DNA from: a virus
Virus record (IMG/VR): IMGVR_UViG_3300021449_000180
Strand: one strand, 5' to 3'
Length of the DNA stretch: 39,612 nucleotides
Shown here: piece after piece, positions 1 to 39,612 of the stretch
How positions within the stretch are numbered: the stretch's first letter is position 1
How the letters are laid out: every line of letters begins with the position of its first letter
The notes under the pieces: model-generated
What the model was told of the DNA's origin: nothing
Seen by the model: only the letters and a program-made list of their open reading frames with translations
Databases searched by the model: none
Made by a program: the position numbers and the translations under genes

Positions 1-55
1 AGTAGCCCCAGGCCGTTTTCGGGGTTCGCGGGGAGGTCCAGCGACCCTTCGTCGG
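1..55. repeat. 55-nt terminal direct repeat, identical to 39558-39612 (assembly overlap, or a circular/terminally redundant genome)
   Basis: Bases 1-55 (agtagccccaggccg...cccttcgtcgg) are letter-for-letter the last 55 bases of the window. An ORF reads in frame across the join. Confidence 0.95.
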
Positions 56-248
56 TGATGGGGCCAGCTTCGCCTTTGTAGGTGCCGCGGGCGCGGGTTG
101 TGTTCTGGAAATCCGGGTTGTTATCCAGTGAAAACCCGTCGCTGACAGCGTCGACGAAGACTGTTGGGCTGACACCGGTCGCGTAGGTTGCTTCTTTGCC
201 GATGCCGACGTAGCCCCGGAACGACTGGGGCGTTTGTCCGATGCTCAT
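1..248 (-). CDS. Major tail (tube) protein, 5' part of a gene spanning the window junction (continues 39557 -> 38798)
   Basis: ATG at 248-246 and the frame stays open to base 1. Using the 55-nt overlap it joins in frame to the ORF ending at 38798 (1008 nt, 335 aa). N-terminus MSIGQTPQSFRGYVGIGKEATYATG. It lies after the head-tail joining genes and before the chaperones and tape measure. Confidence 0.6.
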   Translation of the reverse strand, partial: MSIGQTPQSFRGYVGIGKEATYATGVSPTVFVDAVSDGFSLDNNPDFQNTTRARGTYKGEAGPITDEGSLDLPANPENGLGL

Positions 249-8667: not shown

Positions 8668-9783
8668 CTATGCTCCGGGGGCGGTATGTCCGTGCTGGAT
8701 CGACAGCGGCGTCGGCTGGAATTCCGCCTGATCGACCACCTGCGGACGATAGGACTTCGTCGACATGATCGTCTGAACGAACCCATCCGCGACGTCGTCC
8801 TGCGTCAGCGGCACCCGGTCGCCAACCTTCAGCACGGGCCGGATACCTGACCGACAATAGGGATGCAGCGGCGGGATGAACCACGGTGTGTCGACCATGT
8901 CGACGACGTGTTCGTCCATCCGCCGGCACAGGTCGGTCGTCTTCGTGCCGATAGTCGCGTCATAGACACCGTACCGAAAGCCGTTCCGCAGGTAGCGTTT
9001 CCGTGCCGCGGTATTATAGGCGTCCTGGACGCTGTCGTGCGCGATCAGTTCAGCTTTCGTCCGCGCGGTCTGACCCGTGACACCACGTTCCTGCCGGTCG
9101 CTGGGGTCGCCGCCGTCGACCACGACCTGGACGCGTTCCGCCAGTTGCGGGACGGTTTCGTTCTGCGTCAGCCCCAGTCGGAGCTGTCGCGTGATACGGT
9201 CGCCCAGTTCTTCGGCCAGACTGTCGCTGGTCGCGCCGGCGTCGGTTGCGGTCCTGGTCCCGGACAGCAGCCCGGCGTCAACCTTCCGTATATGTCGAAG
9301 CCACTCCCGGTCAGTCCCATCGACCCGCGGTAGCCCCCGGAGTTGATCGGTGTCGACGTCGTCCGGGAGCGTCGTTTGCATCTGGTCGAACGCCGCCCTG
9401 GCCGCCCGCCCAGCGGCGATGCGATGCCGTTCATCCAGCCACGAAACCAGGCCTTCCCGTAGCCGCTGGGCCGCCAGCATCGTGACAGCCTGATTGACCC
9501 GCCCCGGGCCTTCCGGCCCGTCCATGATCGTCTGCACGTCGTTCTCCCGTAGCCACGCCTGGATTTCCTGCATGACCGACCGGATCGACGCCCGCGCCCG
9601 CTGCCGCGCCCGTCGAAGGTCAGTGACGGTCGTCGTCGCCGCATCACGCCCACCGCCATCATCGTCGCCGTCGTCCTGGGCGTGAACCCGCTGATCGTGG
9701 TGGTGATGGTGTTGACGGCAGGCCAGTCCGGCGTCGATCAGGGCGTCGGACGGCAGCGACGGGTCGGGACGGGTCTGCGCCAC
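8668..9783 (-). CDS. Head morphogenesis protein, Mu F / SPP1 gp7 family
   Basis: 371 aa. TARTKAELIAHDSVQDAYNTA ... DLCRRMDEHVV ... PPLHPYCRSGIRPV matches the MuF signature (ArTe..., D..C, PP.HpnCR). It lies directly after the portal. GTG start. Confidence 0.8.
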   Translation of the reverse strand: MAQTRPDPSLPSDALIDAGLACRQHHHHHDQRVHAQDDGDDDGGGRDAATTTVTDLRRARQRARASIRSVMQEIQAWLRENDVQTIMDGPEGPGRVNQAVTMLAAQRLREGLVSWLDERHRIAAGRAARAAFDQMQTTLPDDVDTDQLRGLPRVDGTDREWLRHIRKVDAGLLSGTRTATDAGATSDSLAEELGDRITRQLRLGLTQNETVPQLAERVQVVVDGGDPSDRQERGVTGQTARTKAELIAHDSVQDAYNTAARKRYLRNGFRYGVYDATIGTKTTDLCRRMDEHVVDMVDTPWFIPPLHPYCRSGIRPVLKVGDRVPLTQDDVADGFVQTIMSTKSYRPQVVDQAEFQPTPLSIQHGHTAPGA

Positions 9784-15625: not shown

Positions 15626-16159
15626 TCACGCGTCACCCGCCGCCGGTGGCGTCGCCTGCGCCTGCGAGACGGTCTGCACCCAGGCCCGCAGCGGACGATC
15701 ACCGACGACGTCGTCCGGGAGGTCATCCTGGTAGACATTCGCTTCCGCCCGGGGGTCGCCATCGTCGGCGTCGATGTTGTGGTGGATGCAGACGCTGAAC
15801 GGCCAGCGCGACGGGTCCCCAGGGATAGAGTAGTTCCCCGCGCTGGTCCGGTCCAGGGCCGCCGGCGCGGCCAGGTAGAACGACCGGTCGCCCTTCCACC
15901 GCGCAACGATGACGCTGGCAGCGTCGAACTGGTCGCCGAAATGCTGAAGTTCAGTGACTTCCCGGCCCGTGGGGTTCCGGGGCGGCCCGCCGGATTTCAG
16001 TTCGCCACAGATGACGACGCCGCCCGATGCAGCCAGGACGTCCGGCGCTTCCTCCGGTTGCGTACCGGACGCGGGCGACCGGATGCCTTCCCAGCCCAGC
16101 GCCGATAGGCAGTTCAACAGGTGTCGTTCCTGTTCAGTCCCGTCCATCATCCACTCCAT
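15626..16159 (-). CDS. hjc: Holliday junction resolvase, archaeal Hjc type
   Basis: GTEQERHLLNCLSALGWEGIRSPASG...PDVLAASGGVVICGELKSG carries the Hjc E...D...E-x-K pattern. The start is taken at the internal ATG 16159 because the upstream track extension is Arg/Ser-rich. Confidence 0.7.
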   Translation of the reverse strand: MEWMMDGTEQERHLLNCLSALGWEGIRSPASGTQPEEAPDVLAASGGVVICGELKSGGPPRNPTGREVTELQHFGDQFDAASVIVARWKGDRSFYLAAPAALDRTSAGNYSIPGDPSRWPFSVCIHHNIDADDGDPRAEANVYQDDLPDDVVGDRPLRAWVQTVSQAQATPPAAGDA

Positions 16160-16307
16160 CCGGGTTGAGGCCGGGGATGCGGCGTTCGATACCCCGGGCG
16201 ATGCACGCCGTCGCCGTGAGTAGGACGCCGGCGTCGCCACGCTGGTCGTCGTGGTCGTCGTTGCGGTGGGTCAGTAGTGCGGTTTCGCCGTCGTCACTCC
16301 CCACCAT
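16134..16307 (-). CDS. Possible small acidic protein (57 aa)
   Basis: It fills the gap between the 142-aa gene and hjc. The first two thirds show the strong third-position G/C pattern of real genes here. It overlaps both neighbours. Confidence 0.3.
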   Translation of the reverse strand: MVGSDDGETALLTHRNDDHDDQRGDAGVLLTATACIARGIERRIPGLNPDGVDDGRD

Positions 16308-16985: not shown

Positions 16986-17888
16986 TTAGTCGTCGGGGTC
17001 CTGATCCTCCCGCATCGTCGACCGCCTCACTGCCTCCCCCCACGACGCCATCGCGTCAGCCTGCTGGGACTGCGGGTCGTCCAGGATGCCCAGGTCCTTC
17101 AGTTCGCGGATGTCCCGCTGCCGCATCCGCGCTTTCGGCAGGTTCACCGGCAGTTCATCTTCAATTTCGACCGGCTCCCCATTCGTCGGGTCAACGACGA
17201 CGTCCCCGTCAGCGACGATCACTTCGTCCTGCGTCAGTAGTTCCCGGACCTGCCGCAGCGTCACGCCCTTCAACAGCACTTGATGCACGCAGACGTCGAA
17301 CAGCCGGTCAGCCTTCCCGGTCAAGTGGTCAGGACTAACGGGCGGGGCATCAGCAGCAGCGTGCTGGCGCGGAGCAGCCTGCGCGACGTGTCCATCACCC
17401 TGGTCGTCGACGCCGTCACCACCGCCGTCAGCGGCCTGTAATGCGTCCTGACTGACGTGGTCCAGGATCGGCGGGCTATACCGGTCCGCATCCCCCGGGT
17501 AGGCGTCGAACGGCGCATCGTCCATGTAGGTCCAGAAGACACGCCTGATCTTCGTCGCCAGCGGCGGGTCATGCTCCCGGAAATAATCGAACAACCCTGT
17601 CGCATCCTGTTCCGCGGCGTACAGCCCGTGTGACAACGCGTTCCGGTTCCCCTCCGGTGCGCCGCCACCGGACGTCTTCTTTCCCGCCACTGCGTTCCCG
17701 TTCCGCGCCGTCCCGTGGTTTTCAGGCGGCCCCGACCCGTCGCGGGGATGCATATAACACCGTTCATCCGCGTCGTCGACCGGAAACTGGCAGGGCGCGT
17801 CCGTCGACGCCGTGTCGTCGTACCCGCAGACATAGGTATCCCCACCATCGCCGGTAGCGTCGCCCTGTCCTTGGTCGTCGTCCACCAT
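16986..17888 (-). CDS. terS: Terminase small subunit-like protein
   Basis: 300 aa from the ATG at 17888. The track extension to 18323 is Arg/His/Pro-rich and overlaps another gene. The motif APEGNRNALSHGLYA is the GNxNAxxHGxY signature seen in P27/YjcR-type small terminases. It lies upstream of terL. Confidence 0.55.
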   Translation of the reverse strand: MVDDDQGQGDATGDGGDTYVCGYDDTASTDAPCQFPVDDADERCYMHPRDGSGPPENHGTARNGNAVAGKKTSGGGAPEGNRNALSHGLYAAEQDATGLFDYFREHDPPLATKIRRVFWTYMDDAPFDAYPGDADRYSPPILDHVSQDALQAADGGGDGVDDQGDGHVAQAAPRQHAAADAPPVSPDHLTGKADRLFDVCVHQVLLKGVTLRQVRELLTQDEVIVADGDVVVDPTNGEPVEIEDELPVNLPKARMRQRDIRELKDLGILDDPQSQQADAMASWGEAVRRSTMREDQDPDD

Positions 17889-17910
17889 ACAGTATCGGTA
17901 TGCTGTTGAA

Positions 17911-17920
17911 TCCTGATAAC
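17911..17920 (-). promoter_or_regulatory. TATA-like box (GTTATCAGGA on the coding strand) 31 nt before the terS ATG
   Basis: It lies in the 122-nt gap upstream of 17888. The spacing fits a leaderless promoter. Confidence 0.3.
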
Positions 17921-18010
17921 AGTTCGCCGCCACCGGACCACGGACTGCGACCGGCTTCAGGAATGGGCTGCCGCAGGGCGCGGGTCGTGGGTCGGGAGAA
18001 CGGGGGGTGG

Positions 18011-18205
18011 TTAGTTCTGGGTGTCGGTGTCGTCGACGTCCTGTTGGAGTGATTCGATGGCTTGCTGGCGGGTGAGGTAGTCGGTGATGTCCGACATGTC
18101 GACGGTGTCGGCCTGTGCTTTGCCGTATTGGTAGGCGTAGCCGTAGGACAGGAGAACGATGACGAAGGCTCCGGCCCCGATGGCGACGGATAGTGGGTCG
18201 ACCAT
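18011..18205 (-). CDS. Small membrane protein (one TM helix)
   Basis: 64 aa with N-terminus VAIGAGAFVIVLLSYGYAY and an acidic C-terminus. It is the first gene after the late element at 18230-18260. Confidence 0.6.
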   Translation of the reverse strand: MVDPLSVAIGAGAFVIVLLSYGYAYQYGKAQADTVDMSDITDYLTRQQAIESLQQDVDDTDTQN

Positions 18206-18229
18206 GCGGGTGGGTGTTGGTCTGGGTGA

Positions 18230-18260
18230 GGTAAGTAGTGGCGTGACGCGGTGGCTGGGG
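18230..18260 (-). promoter_or_regulatory. Late-gene element copy (CCCCAGCCACCGCGTCACGCCACTACTTACC on the coding strand)
   Basis: Core cgtgacgcggtgg at 18242-18254. The CTTACC box starts 30 nt before the ATG at 18205. Confidence 0.55.
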
Positions 18261-18276
18261 TGTCGATAGGGCGTGA

Positions 18277-18300
18277 GGGTAGGGGTGGTGCCGGGTGGGG
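18277..18300 (+). other. Canonical G-quadruplex-forming motif GGGTAGGGGTGGTGCCGGGTGGGG
   Basis: Four G3+ runs with loops of 7 nt or less, inside a G+T-rich ORF-free tract. Confidence 0.5.
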
Positions 18301-18328
18301 TGGCCGGCGCGACGTGACGACAAGTTGG

Positions 18329-18371
18329 CCCCCGCGGCCTTCGGATGGGTTGTCCTGTCGGCCAGCGGGGG
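18329..18371. other. Stable GC hairpin (11-bp stem with one bulge, 20-nt loop)
   Basis: cccccgcggcc (18329-18339) pairs with ggcc-a-gcggggg (18360-18371). Confidence 0.5.
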
Positions 18372-18514
18372 GTTGCGACGATGTCGTGGGGTAGCTATGG
18401 TGCGTGCGGGACGCCCTCTTTGGACGGATGCCCTATTGGGGGCGTGTCGCCGGGGGCGTTCGTGGATGGTGTCGTGTGAGGGTGATCACTCCGTGTGGGT
18501 GGTTGTCGGGGTGG

Positions 18515-25602: not shown

Positions 25603-26505
25603 TTACTCCGACTGAATCCGCGGGGCCAAGAGGAACTGGCCTGACGCGTTCCAGTCGGCGTGATTGAACTGTAGCATCGTCGGGTATTCGATCCCGAACT
25701 TCAGGGTGACGCGGTCCATCTTCGACCGCTTCAACCCCTTCGTCATGTCCCGCAGGTAGTCCAGGCTGAACAGCGAACCCTGGCCGTCACCGTCTTCAGC
25801 GCCCTCTATCCAGGCGGCGTTCGGGAAGACCGCGGTGTCGGCGCGGTCGTCGCTGTCGCTGTCAGCTAACTGGACGTCCCTGGACATGGTTGATCCGACG
25901 ACCAGCGCCGATCCGTCGATGGCAACGCCGGCGTGGTCGTGGCCGTCCGTCAGCGACTTCACGGCGTCGTTCAGCGCGTCGATCCCGGGCGTCGCCCGAA
26001 ACGGCAGGTCGATCCCGGGGACGTCTGGTTCGTCGCGCACGGCGTCGGGGTCGATCAGGCTGAACACGGTGACGCGCTTCATCTGCTGGTCCGGCCTGAT
26101 GACGGCGACGCGCATCCGCGGGACGTCACCCCGGGGGTCCAGGATGTCGATGCGGACGGGGTCGTCGTCCGGCATCCGGGCGAACGACAACGCGGACGTC
26201 AACGTGTCGAAGTTGACGCCGACGGTGACGTCGCGGTTGACCTGGAAGCCGCTGAACCCGTCCGCGTGGACCGTCAGATCGATCATGCCGACGTTCGCCG
26301 GGTCGACCGCAGTGATCGACAGGCCGTCCGGGTCGACGTTCAGTTTCGCCTCTTTGACCAGCGCGGTCGGGAGCCGTAGAAGGGACCGGATCGGTTTCCC
26401 GGTCGTGGCGAACGCCGCGGCGCTGTCGTCCGGGGCGTCGAACCCTAAGTCGTCGCCGGTGTCTTCCGGGACCTGCGTTCTCCCCGCGTCAGGCATCGGC
26501 ATCAC
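25603..26505 (-). CDS. pcn: PCNA (DNA sliding clamp), archaeal type, with a ~45-aa N-terminal extension
   Basis: LNVDPDGLSITAVDPANVGMIDL..., SLFSLDYLRDMTKGL and the C-terminal FLLAPRIQSE match archaeal PCNA hallmarks. The likely ATG is at 26496. Confidence 0.8.
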   Translation of the reverse strand: MMPMPDAGRTQVPEDTGDDLGFDAPDDSAAAFATTGKPIRSLLRLPTALVKEAKLNVDPDGLSITAVDPANVGMIDLTVHADGFSGFQVNRDVTVGVNFDTLTSALSFARMPDDDPVRIDILDPRGDVPRMRVAVIRPDQQMKRVTVFSLIDPDAVRDEPDVPGIDLPFRATPGIDALNDAVKSLTDGHDHAGVAIDGSALVVGSTMSRDVQLADSDSDDRADTAVFPNAAWIEGAEDGDGQGSLFSLDYLRDMTKGLKRSKMDRVTLKFGIEYPTMLQFNHADWNASGQFLLAPRIQSE

Positions 26506-37062: not shown

Positions 37063-37416
37063 TTATCGACCACCTGAACGTGGCTGCGACCCGTCGCCCC
37101 CATCATCGGCGTCCTGTAGGGCGTCCAGTTGGTCGTTCAGGCTGGGCTGGCCGTCCTGCTGTTCGCGCTGATCGGCGCGGGCGTCCTGCTGTTCAGCCAG
37201 GTCCTGTCGTTCACCGTCTGTCGCCGCACCGGCGGACCCGGACTGCTGCGCGTGCCGTCGCTTATCGGCTTCCCAGGACGCCCCTGCCGCCCGTATCTGG
37301 GCGTTCATCCAGAAGTCCCAGGCCGGTCGTCGCATGATGTCGGTCGGAAGCATCCCGTAGTCCTGTCCCATCAGGTGCGCCGCGATGGCGATGTCGTTAC
37401 CCGCGAAACTTTTCAT
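37063..37416 (-). CDS. Tail assembly chaperone-like protein (second of an overlapping pair)
   Basis: 117 aa. It abuts the tape measure start and overlaps the upstream 142-aa gene by 20 nt in the +1 frame. Confidence 0.5.
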   Translation of the reverse strand: MKSFAGNDIAIAAHLMGQDYGMLPTDIMRRPAWDFWMNAQIRAAGASWEADKRRHAQQSGSAGAATDGERQDLAEQQDARADQREQQDGQPSLNDQLDALQDADDGGDGSQPRSGGR

Positions 37417-37825
37417 CAGCCGCCTGTTCCAGTTCGTCCTGGTCCTGCCCGGTCATCCCGGTGATAACCAGCATCAGGTCGTTCGCCGTCAGGACGCCCA
37501 GGTCGAAATTGCCGTCGCCGGCGTCGCCCCAGTACGCGTTCGGGCGTAGGATGTTCGGGATGACGACGTCTTCGATGAAGCCGTTCAGGTCGCCGTCCCG
37601 GACGACCTGTTCCATGTCGACGTCGTCGTCCTGGCCGCCCATCATGTCCATCACGCCGTAGCTGTCCATGTCGCGGAGTAGGGACAGCGGCGGGACTTCC
37701 CGGACTTCCATGTCGCCGTCGCCGTCGTCCAGTTCGACCCAGCGGGTTTCGTGAACCTGCTGTTCGTAGTCGTCCTGTTCGACGACCCGCCGGTCCCCCG
37801 GGTCGGTGGTTGGTTCCGTCGCCAT
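37397..37825 (-). CDS. Tail assembly chaperone-like protein (first of the pair)
   Basis: 142-aa very acidic ORF in the position of lambda gpG, with a late element upstream. Confidence 0.5.
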   Translation of the reverse strand: MATEPTTDPGDRRVVEQDDYEQQVHETRWVELDDGDGDMEVREVPPLSLLRDMDSYGVMDMMGGQDDDVDMEQVVRDGDLNGFIEDVVIPNILRPNAYWGDAGDGNFDLGVLTANDLMLVITGMTGQDQDELEQAADEKFRG

Positions 37826-37849
37826 ACGTCTGCGTCCGTCAGCGTCGTT

Positions 37850-37885
37850 CTTAGTCGGGCGTGACGCCGTGGCCCCGGGGTCGTC
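37850..37885 (-). promoter_or_regulatory. Late-gene element copy (GACGACCCCGGGGCCACGGCGTCACGCCCGACTAAG on the coding strand)
   Basis: Exact core at 37860-37872. The CTAAG box is 29 nt before the ATG at 37825. It starts 2 nt after the stop at 37888. Confidence 0.65.
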
Positions 37886-37887
37886 GG

Positions 37888-38526
37888 TCAGTCTTCCCGG
37901 TCAGCCGAGTCCAGGCGGTCGAACGCTGCATCGGCGTCGTCGTGACGCTGTTCGTCGGCCTGTTGCTGGGCTTCGTCCAGGCGGTCAGCCCAGACCAGCG
38001 TCTTTCCGTGGATCGGGTGTCGTTCGGCGTCCAGTTCGTCAACCAGCAGGTCGACGTAATCGTCAACGGTGCGGTCCTGGAACCCGTATTCGTCCCTGAT
38101 CAGGTCGCGGAGGTCCCCGGGGGCGATTTGGTCGCCGGGTATCTGGGCGGCCAGCCAGGCGACTTTCTGCGCCCGTGAGGCGTTTGCTGGCGGCTTCCCG
38201 TCCGGGTCCCCTGCCTGGACCGGGTCGGCGTCGCCGCTGCTGTCTGCGTCGGCGTGCGTGCGTGCATCGGCGTCAGGAACACGAAGGGCGGGGGTCCCGC
38301 CGTCGCCTTCGGCATCGGCCAGTATCGCCTTGATCGACGCGACATCATCTTCAATCCGTAGCAACCGGTCGTCCCCTTCGTAGTAGGATTCGCGGTAGTC
38401 CCGTAGTGCGTTTTCGATTTCTTTCCGTAGGTGGCCGCGGGTGCCGCCGTGGACGTTGCGGACAAACTGGACGAAGCGGTCGTATTCGTCTGCGTCGATG
38501 GGAGTGGGTTGTTTCCGGTCAGACAT
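37888..38526 (-). CDS. Putative ribbon-helix-helix DNA-binding regulator
   Basis: 212 aa. The N-terminus PTPIDADEYDRFVQFVRNVHGGTRGHLRKEIENALRDYRES fits a strand-helix-loop-helix (CopG/Arc-like) layout. It has its own AT-rich promoter with repeats and interrupts the tail module. Confidence 0.45.
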   Translation of the reverse strand: MSDRKQPTPIDADEYDRFVQFVRNVHGGTRGHLRKEIENALRDYRESYYEGDDRLLRIEDDVASIKAILADAEGDGGTPALRVPDADARTHADADSSGDADPVQAGDPDGKPPANASRAQKVAWLAAQIPGDQIAPGDLRDLIRDEYGFQDRTVDDYVDLLVDELDAERHPIHGKTLVWADRLDEAQQQADEQRHDDADAAFDRLDSADRED

Positions 38527-38545
38527 CGCCGTCCCTCCGTTGAAG

Positions 38546-38586
38546 CTAATTACAAATAAAGCTCCCTATAGCAAACTAATTACAAA
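38546..38586. repeat. Two perfect 11-nt direct repeats CTAATTACAAA, 30 nt apart
   Basis: Copies at 38546-38556 and 38576-38586 in the AT-rich island upstream of 38526. Confidence 0.85.
38553..38560 (-). promoter_or_regulatory. Canonical archaeal TATA box (TTTATTTG on the coding strand), 27-34 nt before the ATG at 38526
   Basis: It is the only strongly A/T-rich box of this kind in the window, and it overlaps direct repeat 1. Confidence 0.55.
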
Positions 38587-38636
38587 CTTACGTCTGTCGT
38601 GCGAACGAACAGAACCCTTGTTAATAATTAGTTTGT
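38572..38636. repeat. Perfect 11-nt inverted repeat CAAACTAATTA ... TAATTAGTTTG
   Basis: Arms at 38572-38582 and 38626-38636 with a 43-nt spacer. The left arm overlaps direct repeat 2. Confidence 0.85.
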
Positions 38637-38642
38637 ACGTAC

Positions 38643-38657
38643 AGTAGTAGTAGTAGT
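38643..38657. repeat. Trinucleotide microsatellite (AGT)5
   Basis: agtagtagtagtagt read directly at the edge of the AT-rich island. Confidence 0.9.
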
Positions 38658-38717
38658 AACAAGAAACCGCCCCAGCGGGAGAGCATTGGACAACCGCCAC
38701 CACGCCGTGGTGCGGTT
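38658..38717 (-). terminator. Candidate terminator after the tail tube gene: GC hairpin plus T-rich tract
   Basis: Imperfect hairpin at 38692-38717 (aaccgccaccacg / cgtggtgcggtt). On the coding strand it is followed by GGTTTCTTGTT (38658-38668). Confidence 0.35.
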
Positions 38718-38797
38718 CCGGGACTGGGGGCGTCCCGTCCCGGACACCGTCGCCGCCCTCCTGCACGCACGCACGCCGACACCGACAGCGCCGGCGA

Positions 38798-39612
38798 TCA
38801 GTACGCTCCCGTGACGCCGTTCGTCAGGGTGACTTCGACTTCCGACCCCAGCCCGCCGACATCGACCAATGCCCGGAATTCGACGTCTTCGGCGACCAGG
38901 TCGTTCTGGTTGATCTGGGCTTCGTGCGTGTTCACCGTACACTTCGGCGCGTCCCAGTCCAGGATGTACGCTGCGGACGTGTCGCTGATGGTTTCTGGCG
39001 ACGTCCAGGTCGCGTTCACCCCGACCGTCGCCAACCGTTCCTGGACGTCCGTCGCGTTCGCCGCGCCCAGGAACTGATCGAACAGCGTCCGGTCTTCGAA
39101 GTCCAGCGTCGCTGTCATCGACACGACGCGTTCCCCGATGTCAACCTTCCCGGCGGTCCGGGCGTCCCTGATCAGGGGGTCCAGGTTGTTTTCGATGGAT
39201 GCGCTGAATTCCTGGACGTCCGGTTCTTTCGACGCTCCGGCGATGTCGAACGCCGCGTCGTTGAACCGGAAGTTTCGAAGGTCGCTGTAGGATGGCGTTG
39301 CCGAATTGACGTCCGGGTCCGGGCCGGCGGCGACCACGTCCACTGACGCTGTCAGCTTTTCTTCCGCCGTGTGCGACAGTTCCAGGGTGTCGACACCGCA
39401 GCCCAGATGCCGGACGACGTCCGTGTCGCGGTCAATCTCCATCGACAGCGCGGGAAGCGTGTCCGTCGGGGTGTAGACGTGGTCGCCGACTTCGTCCGTG
39501 CCGTCGCCGTCAGGGTCGCGGGCGGTGAACGATTCGGTTCCCAGTGCGCCCAGTAGCAGTAGCCCCAGGCCGTTTTCGGGGTTCGCGGGGAGGTCCAGCG
39601 ACCCTTCGTCGG
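38798..39612 (-). CDS. Major tail (tube) protein, 3' part of the junction-spanning gene
   Basis: The track ORF 38798-39442 stays open upstream to the window edge (hand translation DEGSLDLPANPENGLGLLLLGALGTESF...) and joins 1-248 in frame via the 55-nt overlap. Confidence 0.6.
   Translation of the reverse strand, partial: DEGSLDLPANPENGLGLLLLGALGTESFTARDPDGDGTDEVGDHVYTPTDTLPALSMEIDRDTDVVRHLGCGVDTLELSHTAEEKLTASVDVVAAGPDPDVNSATPSYSDLRNFRFNDAAFDIAGASKEPDVQEFSASIENNLDPLIRDARTAGKVDIGERVVSMTATLDFEDRTLFDQFLGAANATDVQERLATVGVNATWTSPETISDTSAAYILDWDAPKCTVNTHEAQINQNDLVAEDVEFRALVDVGGLGSEVEVTLTNGVTGAY
39558..39612. repeat. Second copy of the 55-nt terminal direct repeat
   Basis: Identical to bases 1-55. 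Confidence 0.95.

Follow-up and report, generated by a model that had tools for sequence, protein, structure and literature searches.

The virus record IMGVR_UViG_3300021449_000180 of IMG/VR, a stretch of 39,612 nucleotides (nt) that was analysed as a whole and is referred to here as the window, contains directly after its tail tube gene an uncharacterised open reading frame (ORF) of 212 amino acids (aa), ORF212, preceded by a sharply AT-rich island. Comparison with homologues from other viruses revealed that a characteristic upstream region, containing a short trinucleotide microsatellite, accompanies this gene, and structure prediction placed a ribbon-helix-helix (RHH)-like fold at the N-terminus of the protein and a winged-helix domain in its C-terminal half. 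The reading that we favour, and to which we attach moderate confidence, is that ORF212 is an autoregulated RHH plus winged-helix transcription regulator located at an operon boundary. The present analysis follows up an earlier inspection of the letters of this DNA (the sequence-only reading), which had proposed an operator-like island and an RHH-type regulator gene at this position.

A probable control region that travels with the ORF212 gene

The 200-260 nt upstream of the start codon were taken from approximately 30 homologues. In nearly all of them a shared layout was observed, in which T-rich tracts are followed by a trinucleotide run, either (ACT)n, (AGT/GTA)n or (TGT)n with n = 3-8, that starts 60-170 nt (mostly ~94-135 nt) before the ATG. 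Downstream of this run come an AT-rich block with a TACAAACTA-type sequence, a GC-richer variable spacer and a forward TAGTTTGTA-type copy, and these are followed by the block CCTTTATT(T/A)GTA at -35 to -27, often with another forward copy near -18. A triplet run of three or more units located 60-170 nt before the ATG was detected in 23 of 25 distinct relatives, with 22 falling within 94-166 nt. When perfect triplet runs of at least four units were counted throughout the 25 loci (173 kb), 23 of the 32 runs fell within the 200 nt upstream of the genes, a portion amounting to 2.9% of the sequence; all 23 contain A/T, and the other nine are GC-rich coding repeats. By sequence comparison, the control region travels with the gene, which is the main new result of this work, and the microsatellite appears as its most widely conserved feature rather than as an incidental one.

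The AT-rich motif copies also occupy recurrent positions in the relatives, with reverse copies at -97 or -111 and forward copies near -50 to -63 and near -18 to -33. The TACAAACTA-type motif was present in 10 of the 25 listed relatives, at -111 or -97, and forms a conserved block in alignment A6, and the CCTTTATT(T/A)GTA block lies at the same distance from the ATG in eight of nine aligned relatives. The window and the related locus L002, whose ORF212 homologue is 92% identical at the protein level, agree completely in the T tract, the repeat, GTACGTACAAACTAA and a 32-nt block around the middle motif (100% identity for the middle motif copy itself), and the spacer shows ~7 changes in 27 nt, including one compensatory pair. 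The halovirus Hardycor1 carries (ACT)3.7 upstream of its family member, HrrHc1_265. At locus L038 (693-1585) two divergent paralogues are arranged around one shared 218-nt control region with (GTA)7 and GTATA-rich repeats.

Close relatives differ in the repeat unit, some having ACT and others (L004, L008) the reverse-complementary AGT, and a second, inverted run is found in L016, L027 and L039. This independence of strand suggests that the repeat functions in duplex DNA and not in RNA. The number of units varies from 3 to 8 among relatives, and a perfect microsatellite standing upstream of a promoter might suggest a phase-variable (contingency) promoter, in which slippage of the repeat would switch the regulator together with the tail genes. 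Near-identical pairs, however, have equal unit numbers (L025/L037, window/L002, L014/L015, L016/L017 and L030/L032), and the repeat is positioned upstream of the core promoter rather than between promoter elements; we consider a switch of this kind quite improbable. A link between the unit type and either protein similarity or the β-strand residues was also sought, and the association was loose and confounded by phylogeny.

Separately, a perfect triplet-repeat palindrome, GGTTGTTGT/AACAACAACC, was noted in HRTV-4 (L042, 12940-12961) within a short gap after the portal gene. This palindrome is probably a terminator hairpin that is unlinked to the family gene.

The AT-rich island of the window

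The island (38519-38684) is the AT-richest stretch of the genome and its one strongly AT-rich region, reaching a minimum of 32% GC compared with a genome mean of 65.5%; using 60-nt windows, the GC content fell below 45% at only two places. Most of the elements that the sequence-only reading had listed here were recovered: two perfect 11-nt direct repeats, CTAATTACAAA, at 38546-38556 and 38576-38586 (30-nt spacing), which reach 14 nt if one mismatch is allowed; an (AGT)5 microsatellite, which was measured at 5.3 units; and a TATA-like box at 38553-38560, which reads TTTATTTG on the minus strand and is situated 27-34 nt before the ATG at 38526. The 11-nt inverted repeat was likewise present, with one arm, CAAACTAATTA, at 38572-38582 as described, and its partner, TAATTAGTTTG, at 38625-38635 rather than at 38626-38636; the repeat extends to 16 nt with 88% complementarity. 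The hairpin and T-tract that had been suggested to terminate the tail tube transcript could be found on the minus strand but were not distinct from chance, as stem plus T-tract sites numbered two in the region against 1.4 expected.

The CTAATTACAAA pattern, searched with up to two mismatches, was found three times, always within the island, against 0.5 occurrences expected, and three were reached in none of 100 shuffled sequences. Elsewhere in the genome there were no other copies of the repeat motif and no similar microsatellite, (AGT)5.3 being the sole triplet array in the window that is not GC-rich. Given this confinement to the island, the earlier suggestion that the protein regulates the late genes of the virus is not supported. 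Of the motif copies, one (38543-38556) runs into the TATA-like box (38553-38560), and further copies lie 30 nt and ~83 nt upstream. The centres of the copies are ~30 nt (proximal to middle) and ~53 nt (middle to distal) apart, close to three and five turns of the helix, which would place them on the same face of the DNA. At the sequence level, candidate operators overlap the predicted core promoter of ORF212's own gene.

Being the AT-richest stretch of a complete circular genome, containing both direct and inverted repeats, and adjoining a gene for a predicted DNA-binding protein, the island could also be viewed as a replication origin with an AT-rich unwinding element, and ORF212 as an origin-binding or accessory protein. 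An alternative origin had been mentioned in the sequence-only reading. However, the cumulative GC skew reaches its minimum at ~17.9 kb (17,941) without any switch at 38.6 kb, and among the genes examined none was recognised as a replication initiator. ORF212 itself contains no initiator-type domain (ATPase, helicase, primase or Orc/Rep-like), the viruses HRTV-4 and HRTV-28 carry the gene without the island, and the AT-rich blocks align with the TATA box, whose spacing from the ATG is constant, as would be expected of a promoter. An origin at this site is in our judgement improbable.

Near the skew minimum, at ~17,400-18,500, the GC skew jumps from approximately -0.05 to +0.22 in a part of the genome where gene calls are uncertain, and this change could be a replication or transcription landmark. 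A 445-aa ORF at 16986-18323 had no family match and failed the codon-position GC filter, and inspection of repeats at 17.2-18.7 kb yielded nothing notable.

A further possibility was that the inverted repeat and its spacer act as RNA, in the form of a hairpin serving as a terminator of the tube transcript, as an element of the 5′ untranslated region (UTR) or as a small RNA. On the coding strand, the segment 38527-38670 folds into a 12-bp stem with an inner stem (z = -3.4), strong hairpins are present in L007 (z = -5.2) and L009 (z = -4.4), and one G:C to A:T change between the window and L002 is compensatory. Against this, the median z across 27 relatives is -0.2 and many of them lack a hairpin, an uncompensated T-to-A change makes the long stem of L002 weaker (z = -1.7), the inverted motif copies are separated by anything from ~25 to ~70 nt across relatives, and the microsatellite is found in either strand orientation. 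No Rfam 15 match was obtained at E ≤ 1 for either strand of 37800-39000, and the TATA box lies downstream of the hairpin, which would leave the hairpin outside the ORF212 mRNA. With the z-scores of the relatives centred on zero, the long hairpin was rejected as a generally conserved RNA structure. Since conservation is seen in the motif copies and in where they lie with respect to the TATA box, binding sites for a protein fit better than an RNA element, and a functional hairpin seems unlikely.

Predicted folds of the ORF212 protein

Searches of ORF212 against Pfam, PHROG, NCBIfam and PADLOC returned nothing significant. An AlphaFold2 (AF2) monomer model built on a 91-sequence alignment had a mean predicted local distance difference test (pLDDT) score of 85.4; the model made from the single sequence, without the alignment, was uninformative (pLDDT 50). 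In the alignment-based model the N-terminus consists of an extended segment (residues 7-11), a helix (12-26), a loop (G27-G28-T-R-G31) and a helix running from residue 32 to 73. When the N-terminal profile was compared by hhalign with seven classic RHH proteins (sequences entered by hand), a probability of 70.8% was obtained (E 3.8e-5, 40 columns), with the strand, helix A and helix B all aligned and the loop of ORF212 four residues longer than that of classic RHH proteins. The RHH-like start that had been read from the sequence is supported at the level of the predicted fold, having the strand-helix-helix topology.

The model also contains a predicted domain that the sequence-only reading had missed, a C-terminal winged helix. 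Its elements (H118-128, E133-134, H136-147, H151-165, E168-169 and E177-178) match the winged-helix topology, and the top Foldseek matches in the PDB were almost all winged-helix DNA-binding domains, among them Rok, STIV F93, SSV1 F-93, forkhead proteins, Zur and IclR. The part of the long helix that continues from helix B is a candidate coiled-coil oligomerisation element. Shortly after its end, G76 is invariant and D75 and G77 are conserved at 90% or more in the 91 family sequences (residues 75-77, encoded by 38296-38304). The basic motif KPxxNxxRxxKxxWL (region 110-125) is conserved directly before the winged helix and could serve as an arm that contacts DNA. When PDB sequences were searched with profiles of the full protein and of the separate domains, no significant match emerged, S25 and 2k6l being hints only.

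A protein with an N-terminal RHH fold, an oligomerisation helix, a flexible linker and a C-terminal domain, encoded beside short-repeat arrays, would also suit a centromere-binding adaptor of the ParR/ParG/omega kind, for which the repeats would form a centromere-like site used for segregation in a carrier state. However, no ParA, ParM or TubZ-type NTPase was found among the ORFs scanned, the family had no match in plasmids, nor in GTDB genomes with the patterns used, and the repeats overlap the promoter. We regard a segregation function as very unlikely.

Family size and genomic contexts

ORF212 has 19 close homologues, and at least 266 cluster representatives (clusters at 50% identity) were matched at E ≤ 1e-3, all from viral or metagenomic sequence. 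A plasmid search recovered no family copies, and two scans of GTDB genomes with narrow peptide patterns recovered no cellular copies, which does not prove their absence.

The order of tail tube gene, gap, ORF212 homologue, two small ORFs and tape measure gene is kept in the loci L001, L002, L004 and L008, which compared with the window have 58-93% identity in the tail tube and 45-92% in the ORF212 homologue. Given this shared order, the gene can be taken as a stable feature of the clade, and not as a sporadic insert in the tail module. The tail-module position of the family is restricted to this clade. In HHTV-1 (L012, KC292025; 5827-7742) the tube and chaperone genes are separated by gp29-gp32, four unrelated genes for hypothetical proteins, of which three lie on the opposite strand, and this slot appears to be an operon boundary that is open to accessory genes, a hot spot in this lineage.

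Family members were also identified in three cultured haloviruses, where all are annotated as hypothetical: HrrHc1_265 of Hardycor1 (profile E 7e-69), gp61 of HRTV-28 (4e-25) and gp10 of HRTV-4 (1e-14). Their membership was further supported by full-length fold matches and by a tblastn match of 40% identity over 150 aa. HrrHc1_265 is located two genes into a rightward gene block that runs across the arbitrary start of the record to terL, and HRTV-28 gp61 and HRTV-4 gp10 lie within early or regulatory gene blocks. In L007 the homologue comes after a gene encoding a winged-helix protein of MCM type, in L010 and L047 it adjoins Hjc, and in L009 it is found ~1.6 kb downstream of an integrase gene, with a gene for an HNH endonuclease nearer. 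Such early, regulatory and recombination contexts suggest a regulatory rather than a structural role for the family. Moreover, the recurrence of the same gene with the same type of upstream region in quite different genomic contexts agrees with the earlier description of a self-contained cassette. The proposal of an immunity repressor is not supported, as no integrase was detected among the 20 larger ORFs of the window that were scanned, notwithstanding the integrase gene near the L009 homologue.

In L047 (4584-5687), a gene for a TFIIB (TFB)-family protein was observed two genes downstream of the ORF212 homologue, on the opposite strand.

The conserved position between tube and chaperone genes across the clade, together with the very acidic character and long helices of the protein, would be compatible with an accessory role of ORF212 in tail assembly or structure, such as that of an additional chaperone, and with the island being an internal promoter. 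However, the homologues of Hardycor1, HRTV-4, HRTV-28, L007, L009, L010 and L047 lie outside tail modules, both predicted folded domains are of DNA-binding types, the corresponding slot of HHTV-1 holds unrelated accessory genes, and no PHROG tail family was matched. We give little credence to a structural role.

Proposed mechanism

Haloarchaeal TATA boxes have their centres near -27, and the majority of haloarchaeal mRNAs are leaderless. A TATA-like box 27-34 nt before the ATG suggests that a TATA-box promoter belonging to ORF212 itself would yield an mRNA with no leader or almost none. If ORF212 is an autoregulator, as we favour, the island would be its control region, with the TAGTTTGTA/TTTGTAATTAG-type motif copies on one face of the helix. 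ORF212 bound at the proximal copy, which overlaps the TATA box, would block TATA-binding protein (TBP) along with TFB and thereby repress its own promoter, and a dimer of dimers, joined by the long helix, may occupy the motif copies cooperatively.

Gaps among the head genes and the tube gene upstream of the cassette are at most 5 nt, and 62 nt separate the ORF212 stop codon from the first small ORF. This tight packing upstream and the 62-nt gap downstream suggest that the cassette probably marks a boundary between operons of high and low expression. The upstream, high-expression operon, from the head genes to the tail tube gene, would end in the T-rich tract, and the level of the low-copy tail assembly genes downstream (chaperones, tape measure and distal tail) would be set by the autoregulated promoter. 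The two small ORFs are probably co-transcribed with ORF212.

The least certain step concerns the microsatellite, situated just upstream of the distal motif, whose most likely role would be that of a distal nucleation site or a binding array for one of the two domains, on the pattern of RHH proteins known to recognise short tandem repeats. It is possible, though we hold this tentatively, that the microsatellite is the cognate high-affinity array of the family, a 'microsatellite operator'. RHH dimers or winged-helix domains would then load in register on TAC/GTA- or TGT-type units, followed by bridging or oligomerisation to the AT-rich motif copies and the TATA box. If true, this would explain why a perfect repeat is kept as the adjoining spacer diverges, and it would represent a new kind of operator for prokaryotic viruses, one whose unit type changes together with the protein. 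The main alternative is that the microsatellite serves as a flexible or structural spacer.

Several observations weigh against the autoregulator interpretation. Distant members of the family have units of 4-5 nt, (CTAC)3 or (CTACT)3, another type of repeat or no repeat, and in HRTV-4 and HRTV-28 the gene has no intergenic region to itself and lacks both the control element and the microsatellite; the existence of genes that lack the element or have an altered repeat indicates that the microsatellite is not obligatory for the function of the protein. The type of unit tracks the protein phylogeny only loosely. With respect to the protein, no curated RHH or winged-helix model was matched above threshold: among 42 N-terminal domains searched against Pfam, four gave sub-threshold hits to RHH_1 (two members, E 0.055), RHH_6 and BrnA, and the best RHH structure in the profile search of the PDB, 2k6l, had an E-value of 0.48. 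The RHH reference sequences used for hhalign were a small set entered by hand, and the β-ribbon of the predicted RHH fold lies beyond a monomer model. The Foldseek matches to winged-helix domains were weak (best E 0.11, probability up to 0.92). Finally, the TATA-like promoter, the start site and the binding of ORF212 are candidate or predicted features.

The window and its neighbouring genes

A 55-nt direct repeat is found at both ends of the window (1-55 and 39558-39612). With this terminal repeat, the window is a complete genome of 39,557 bp, either circular or circularly permuted. Its high GC content, acidic proteins and nearest relatives (Halorubrum viruses; 43% identity to the tail tube of HHTV-1) assign it to a tailed virus of haloarchaea. 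A nucleotide search of the region against phage genomes gave no match.

At this end of the window every gene is on the minus strand, in the order tail tube gene, a non-coding gap of 271 nt, ORF212, a 142-aa ORF, a 117-aa ORF and the gene for an 802-aa tape measure protein (Table 1). The 142-aa and 117-aa ORFs overlap by 20 nt (37397-37416), an arrangement that looks like a candidate programmed frameshift of the tail chaperone (G/GT) type. In L001 (7168-7228), similarity to the 117-aa ORF was seen to begin ~60 nt before the called ATG, overlapping the first ORF. Elsewhere in the window, genes were noted for a MuF-like head protein (8668-9783; 4e-8), an Hjc-type Holliday junction resolvase (15626-16240; 1e-10) and a PCNA-like protein (25603-26505; PCNA_N 2e-9).

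Table 1. Positions of ORF212, its predicted protein segments, the upstream elements and the adjacent tail genes in the window.
Feature	Position	Strand	Basis or remark
Tail tube gene, 5′ part	~56-248		Joined 335-aa ORF crosses the circular junction
Tail tube gene, 3′ part	38798-39612	-	Phage_tube_2 2e-24 (Pfam), PHROG 290; frame open to window end
GC-rich spacer after tube stop codon	38659-38797	-	Ends in terminator-like stem (38685-38668) and T-rich tract GTTTCTTGTT (38667-38658)
Microsatellite (AGT)5.3	38643-38658		(AGT)5.3 on plus strand, (ACT)5 on coding strand
Distal motif copy, inverted; coding strand GTACAAACTAATTATTAAC; left arm of inverted repeat	38620-38639	-	Repeat analysis and relatives
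GC-richer variable spacer with small internal dyad TCTGT...ACAGA	38590-38619	-	Most divergent segment between window and L002
Middle motif copy, coding strand AAGTTTGTAATTAGTTTGC; right arm of inverted repeat and second direct repeat	38570-38589	-
Promoter-proximal motif copy, overlapping TATA-like box	38543-38560	-
ORF212, 212 aa, predicted two-domain DNA-binding protein of uncharacterised family	37888-38526	-	AF2 model and homologues
RHH-like strand, helix A, GGTRG loop and helix B (predicted), residues 5-46	38389-38514	-	AF2, pLDDT ~95
Continuation of helix B as long helix, residues 47-73	38308-38388	-	AF2, H32-73
Acidic linker ending in KPxxNxxRxxKxxWL, residues 74-117	38176-38307	-	pLDDT 49-60, disordered
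Winged-helix domain (predicted), H1-S1-H2-H3-S2-wing-S3, residues 118-178	37993-38175	-	AF2, pLDDT 95-98
Long acidic C-terminal helix, residues 180-211	37894-37989	-	AF2
Two small ORFs, 142 and 117 aa, in tail assembly chaperone position	37063-37825	-	Same order in L001, L002, L004 and L008

Significance and comparison with known systems

Little is understood of how haloarchaeal tailed viruses regulate their genes, most of which lack an assigned function. The present analysis defines a large, virus-restricted family of proteins (at least 266 clusters at 50% identity), whose confidently predicted fold combines two DNA-binding modules, together with the family's probable cis-acting control region. 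It also suggests a likely function for the hypothetical proteins of Hardycor1, HRTV-4 and HRTV-28, all of them cultured viruses. As a kind of system, viral DNA-binding proteins that regulate their own genes through operators in the promoter are already known. What is new is the family with its predicted RHH/winged-helix architecture, its wide spread in haloarchaeal tailed viruses, and the conserved microsatellite of the control region, for which literature searches, among them those on microsatellites in halovirus promoters, found no description and nothing relevant. The system is compact and directly testable with one protein and a fragment of ~150 bp. Two questions that it may help to address are how an archaeal virus keeps the expression of high-copy structural genes apart from that of its low-copy tail genes, and whether simple-sequence repeats are able to function in regulation.

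Among regulators of archaeal viruses, the RHH proteins SvtR (SIRV1), F55 (SSV1) and AvtR (AFV6) have been reviewed; they repress their own promoters, SvtR additionally controls a tail-fibre gene, F55 binds ATAGATAG tandem repeats, and a model has been described in which distal nucleation is followed by oligomerisation toward the TFB recognition element (BRE) and the TATA box (PMC5569661). ORF212 resembles these proteins in its predicted RHH-type fold and in having repeated candidate sites in its own predicted promoter that overlap core elements. In contrast, SvtR, F55 and AvtR are single-domain proteins of 55-100 aa from viruses of Sulfolobales, whereas ORF212 comes from a haloarchaeal tailed virus and, at 212 aa, is predicted to add a long helix, an acidic linker, a winged helix and a terminal helix. 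No sequence similarity above threshold was detected between ORF212 and any of the three, and a perfect, conserved upstream microsatellite has been reported for none of them.

Mnt of phage P22 combines an N-terminal RHH domain with a helical oligomerisation region, and its tetramer binds two operator half-sites. Like ORF212, it is a phage regulator encoded beside its operator (in the case of ORF212, a candidate operator); unlike ORF212 it is bacterial and has no winged helix, and no homology between the two was detected. The true family members, HrrHc1_265, HRTV-28 gp61 and HRTV-4 gp10, differ from ORF212 in their non-tail contexts.

For the winged-helix domain, SSV1 F-93 and STIV F93 (PDB 1tbx and 2co5) were among the best structural matches to residues 118-178, although the match is weak (E ~0.1-0.3, 17-22% identity) and both are stand-alone domains of ~93 aa without an RHH. 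The Foldseek matches also included the forkhead protein FoxP3, which forms multimers on TnG microsatellites (PDB 8sro and 9d2l). FoxP3 is eukaryotic and the structural match is generic for winged helices, making contact between ORF212 and its repeat an analogy only; nonetheless, FoxP3 provides an example of a winged-helix factor that reads a microsatellite, and some relatives of ORF212 carry upstream (TTG)n, a T2G repeat.

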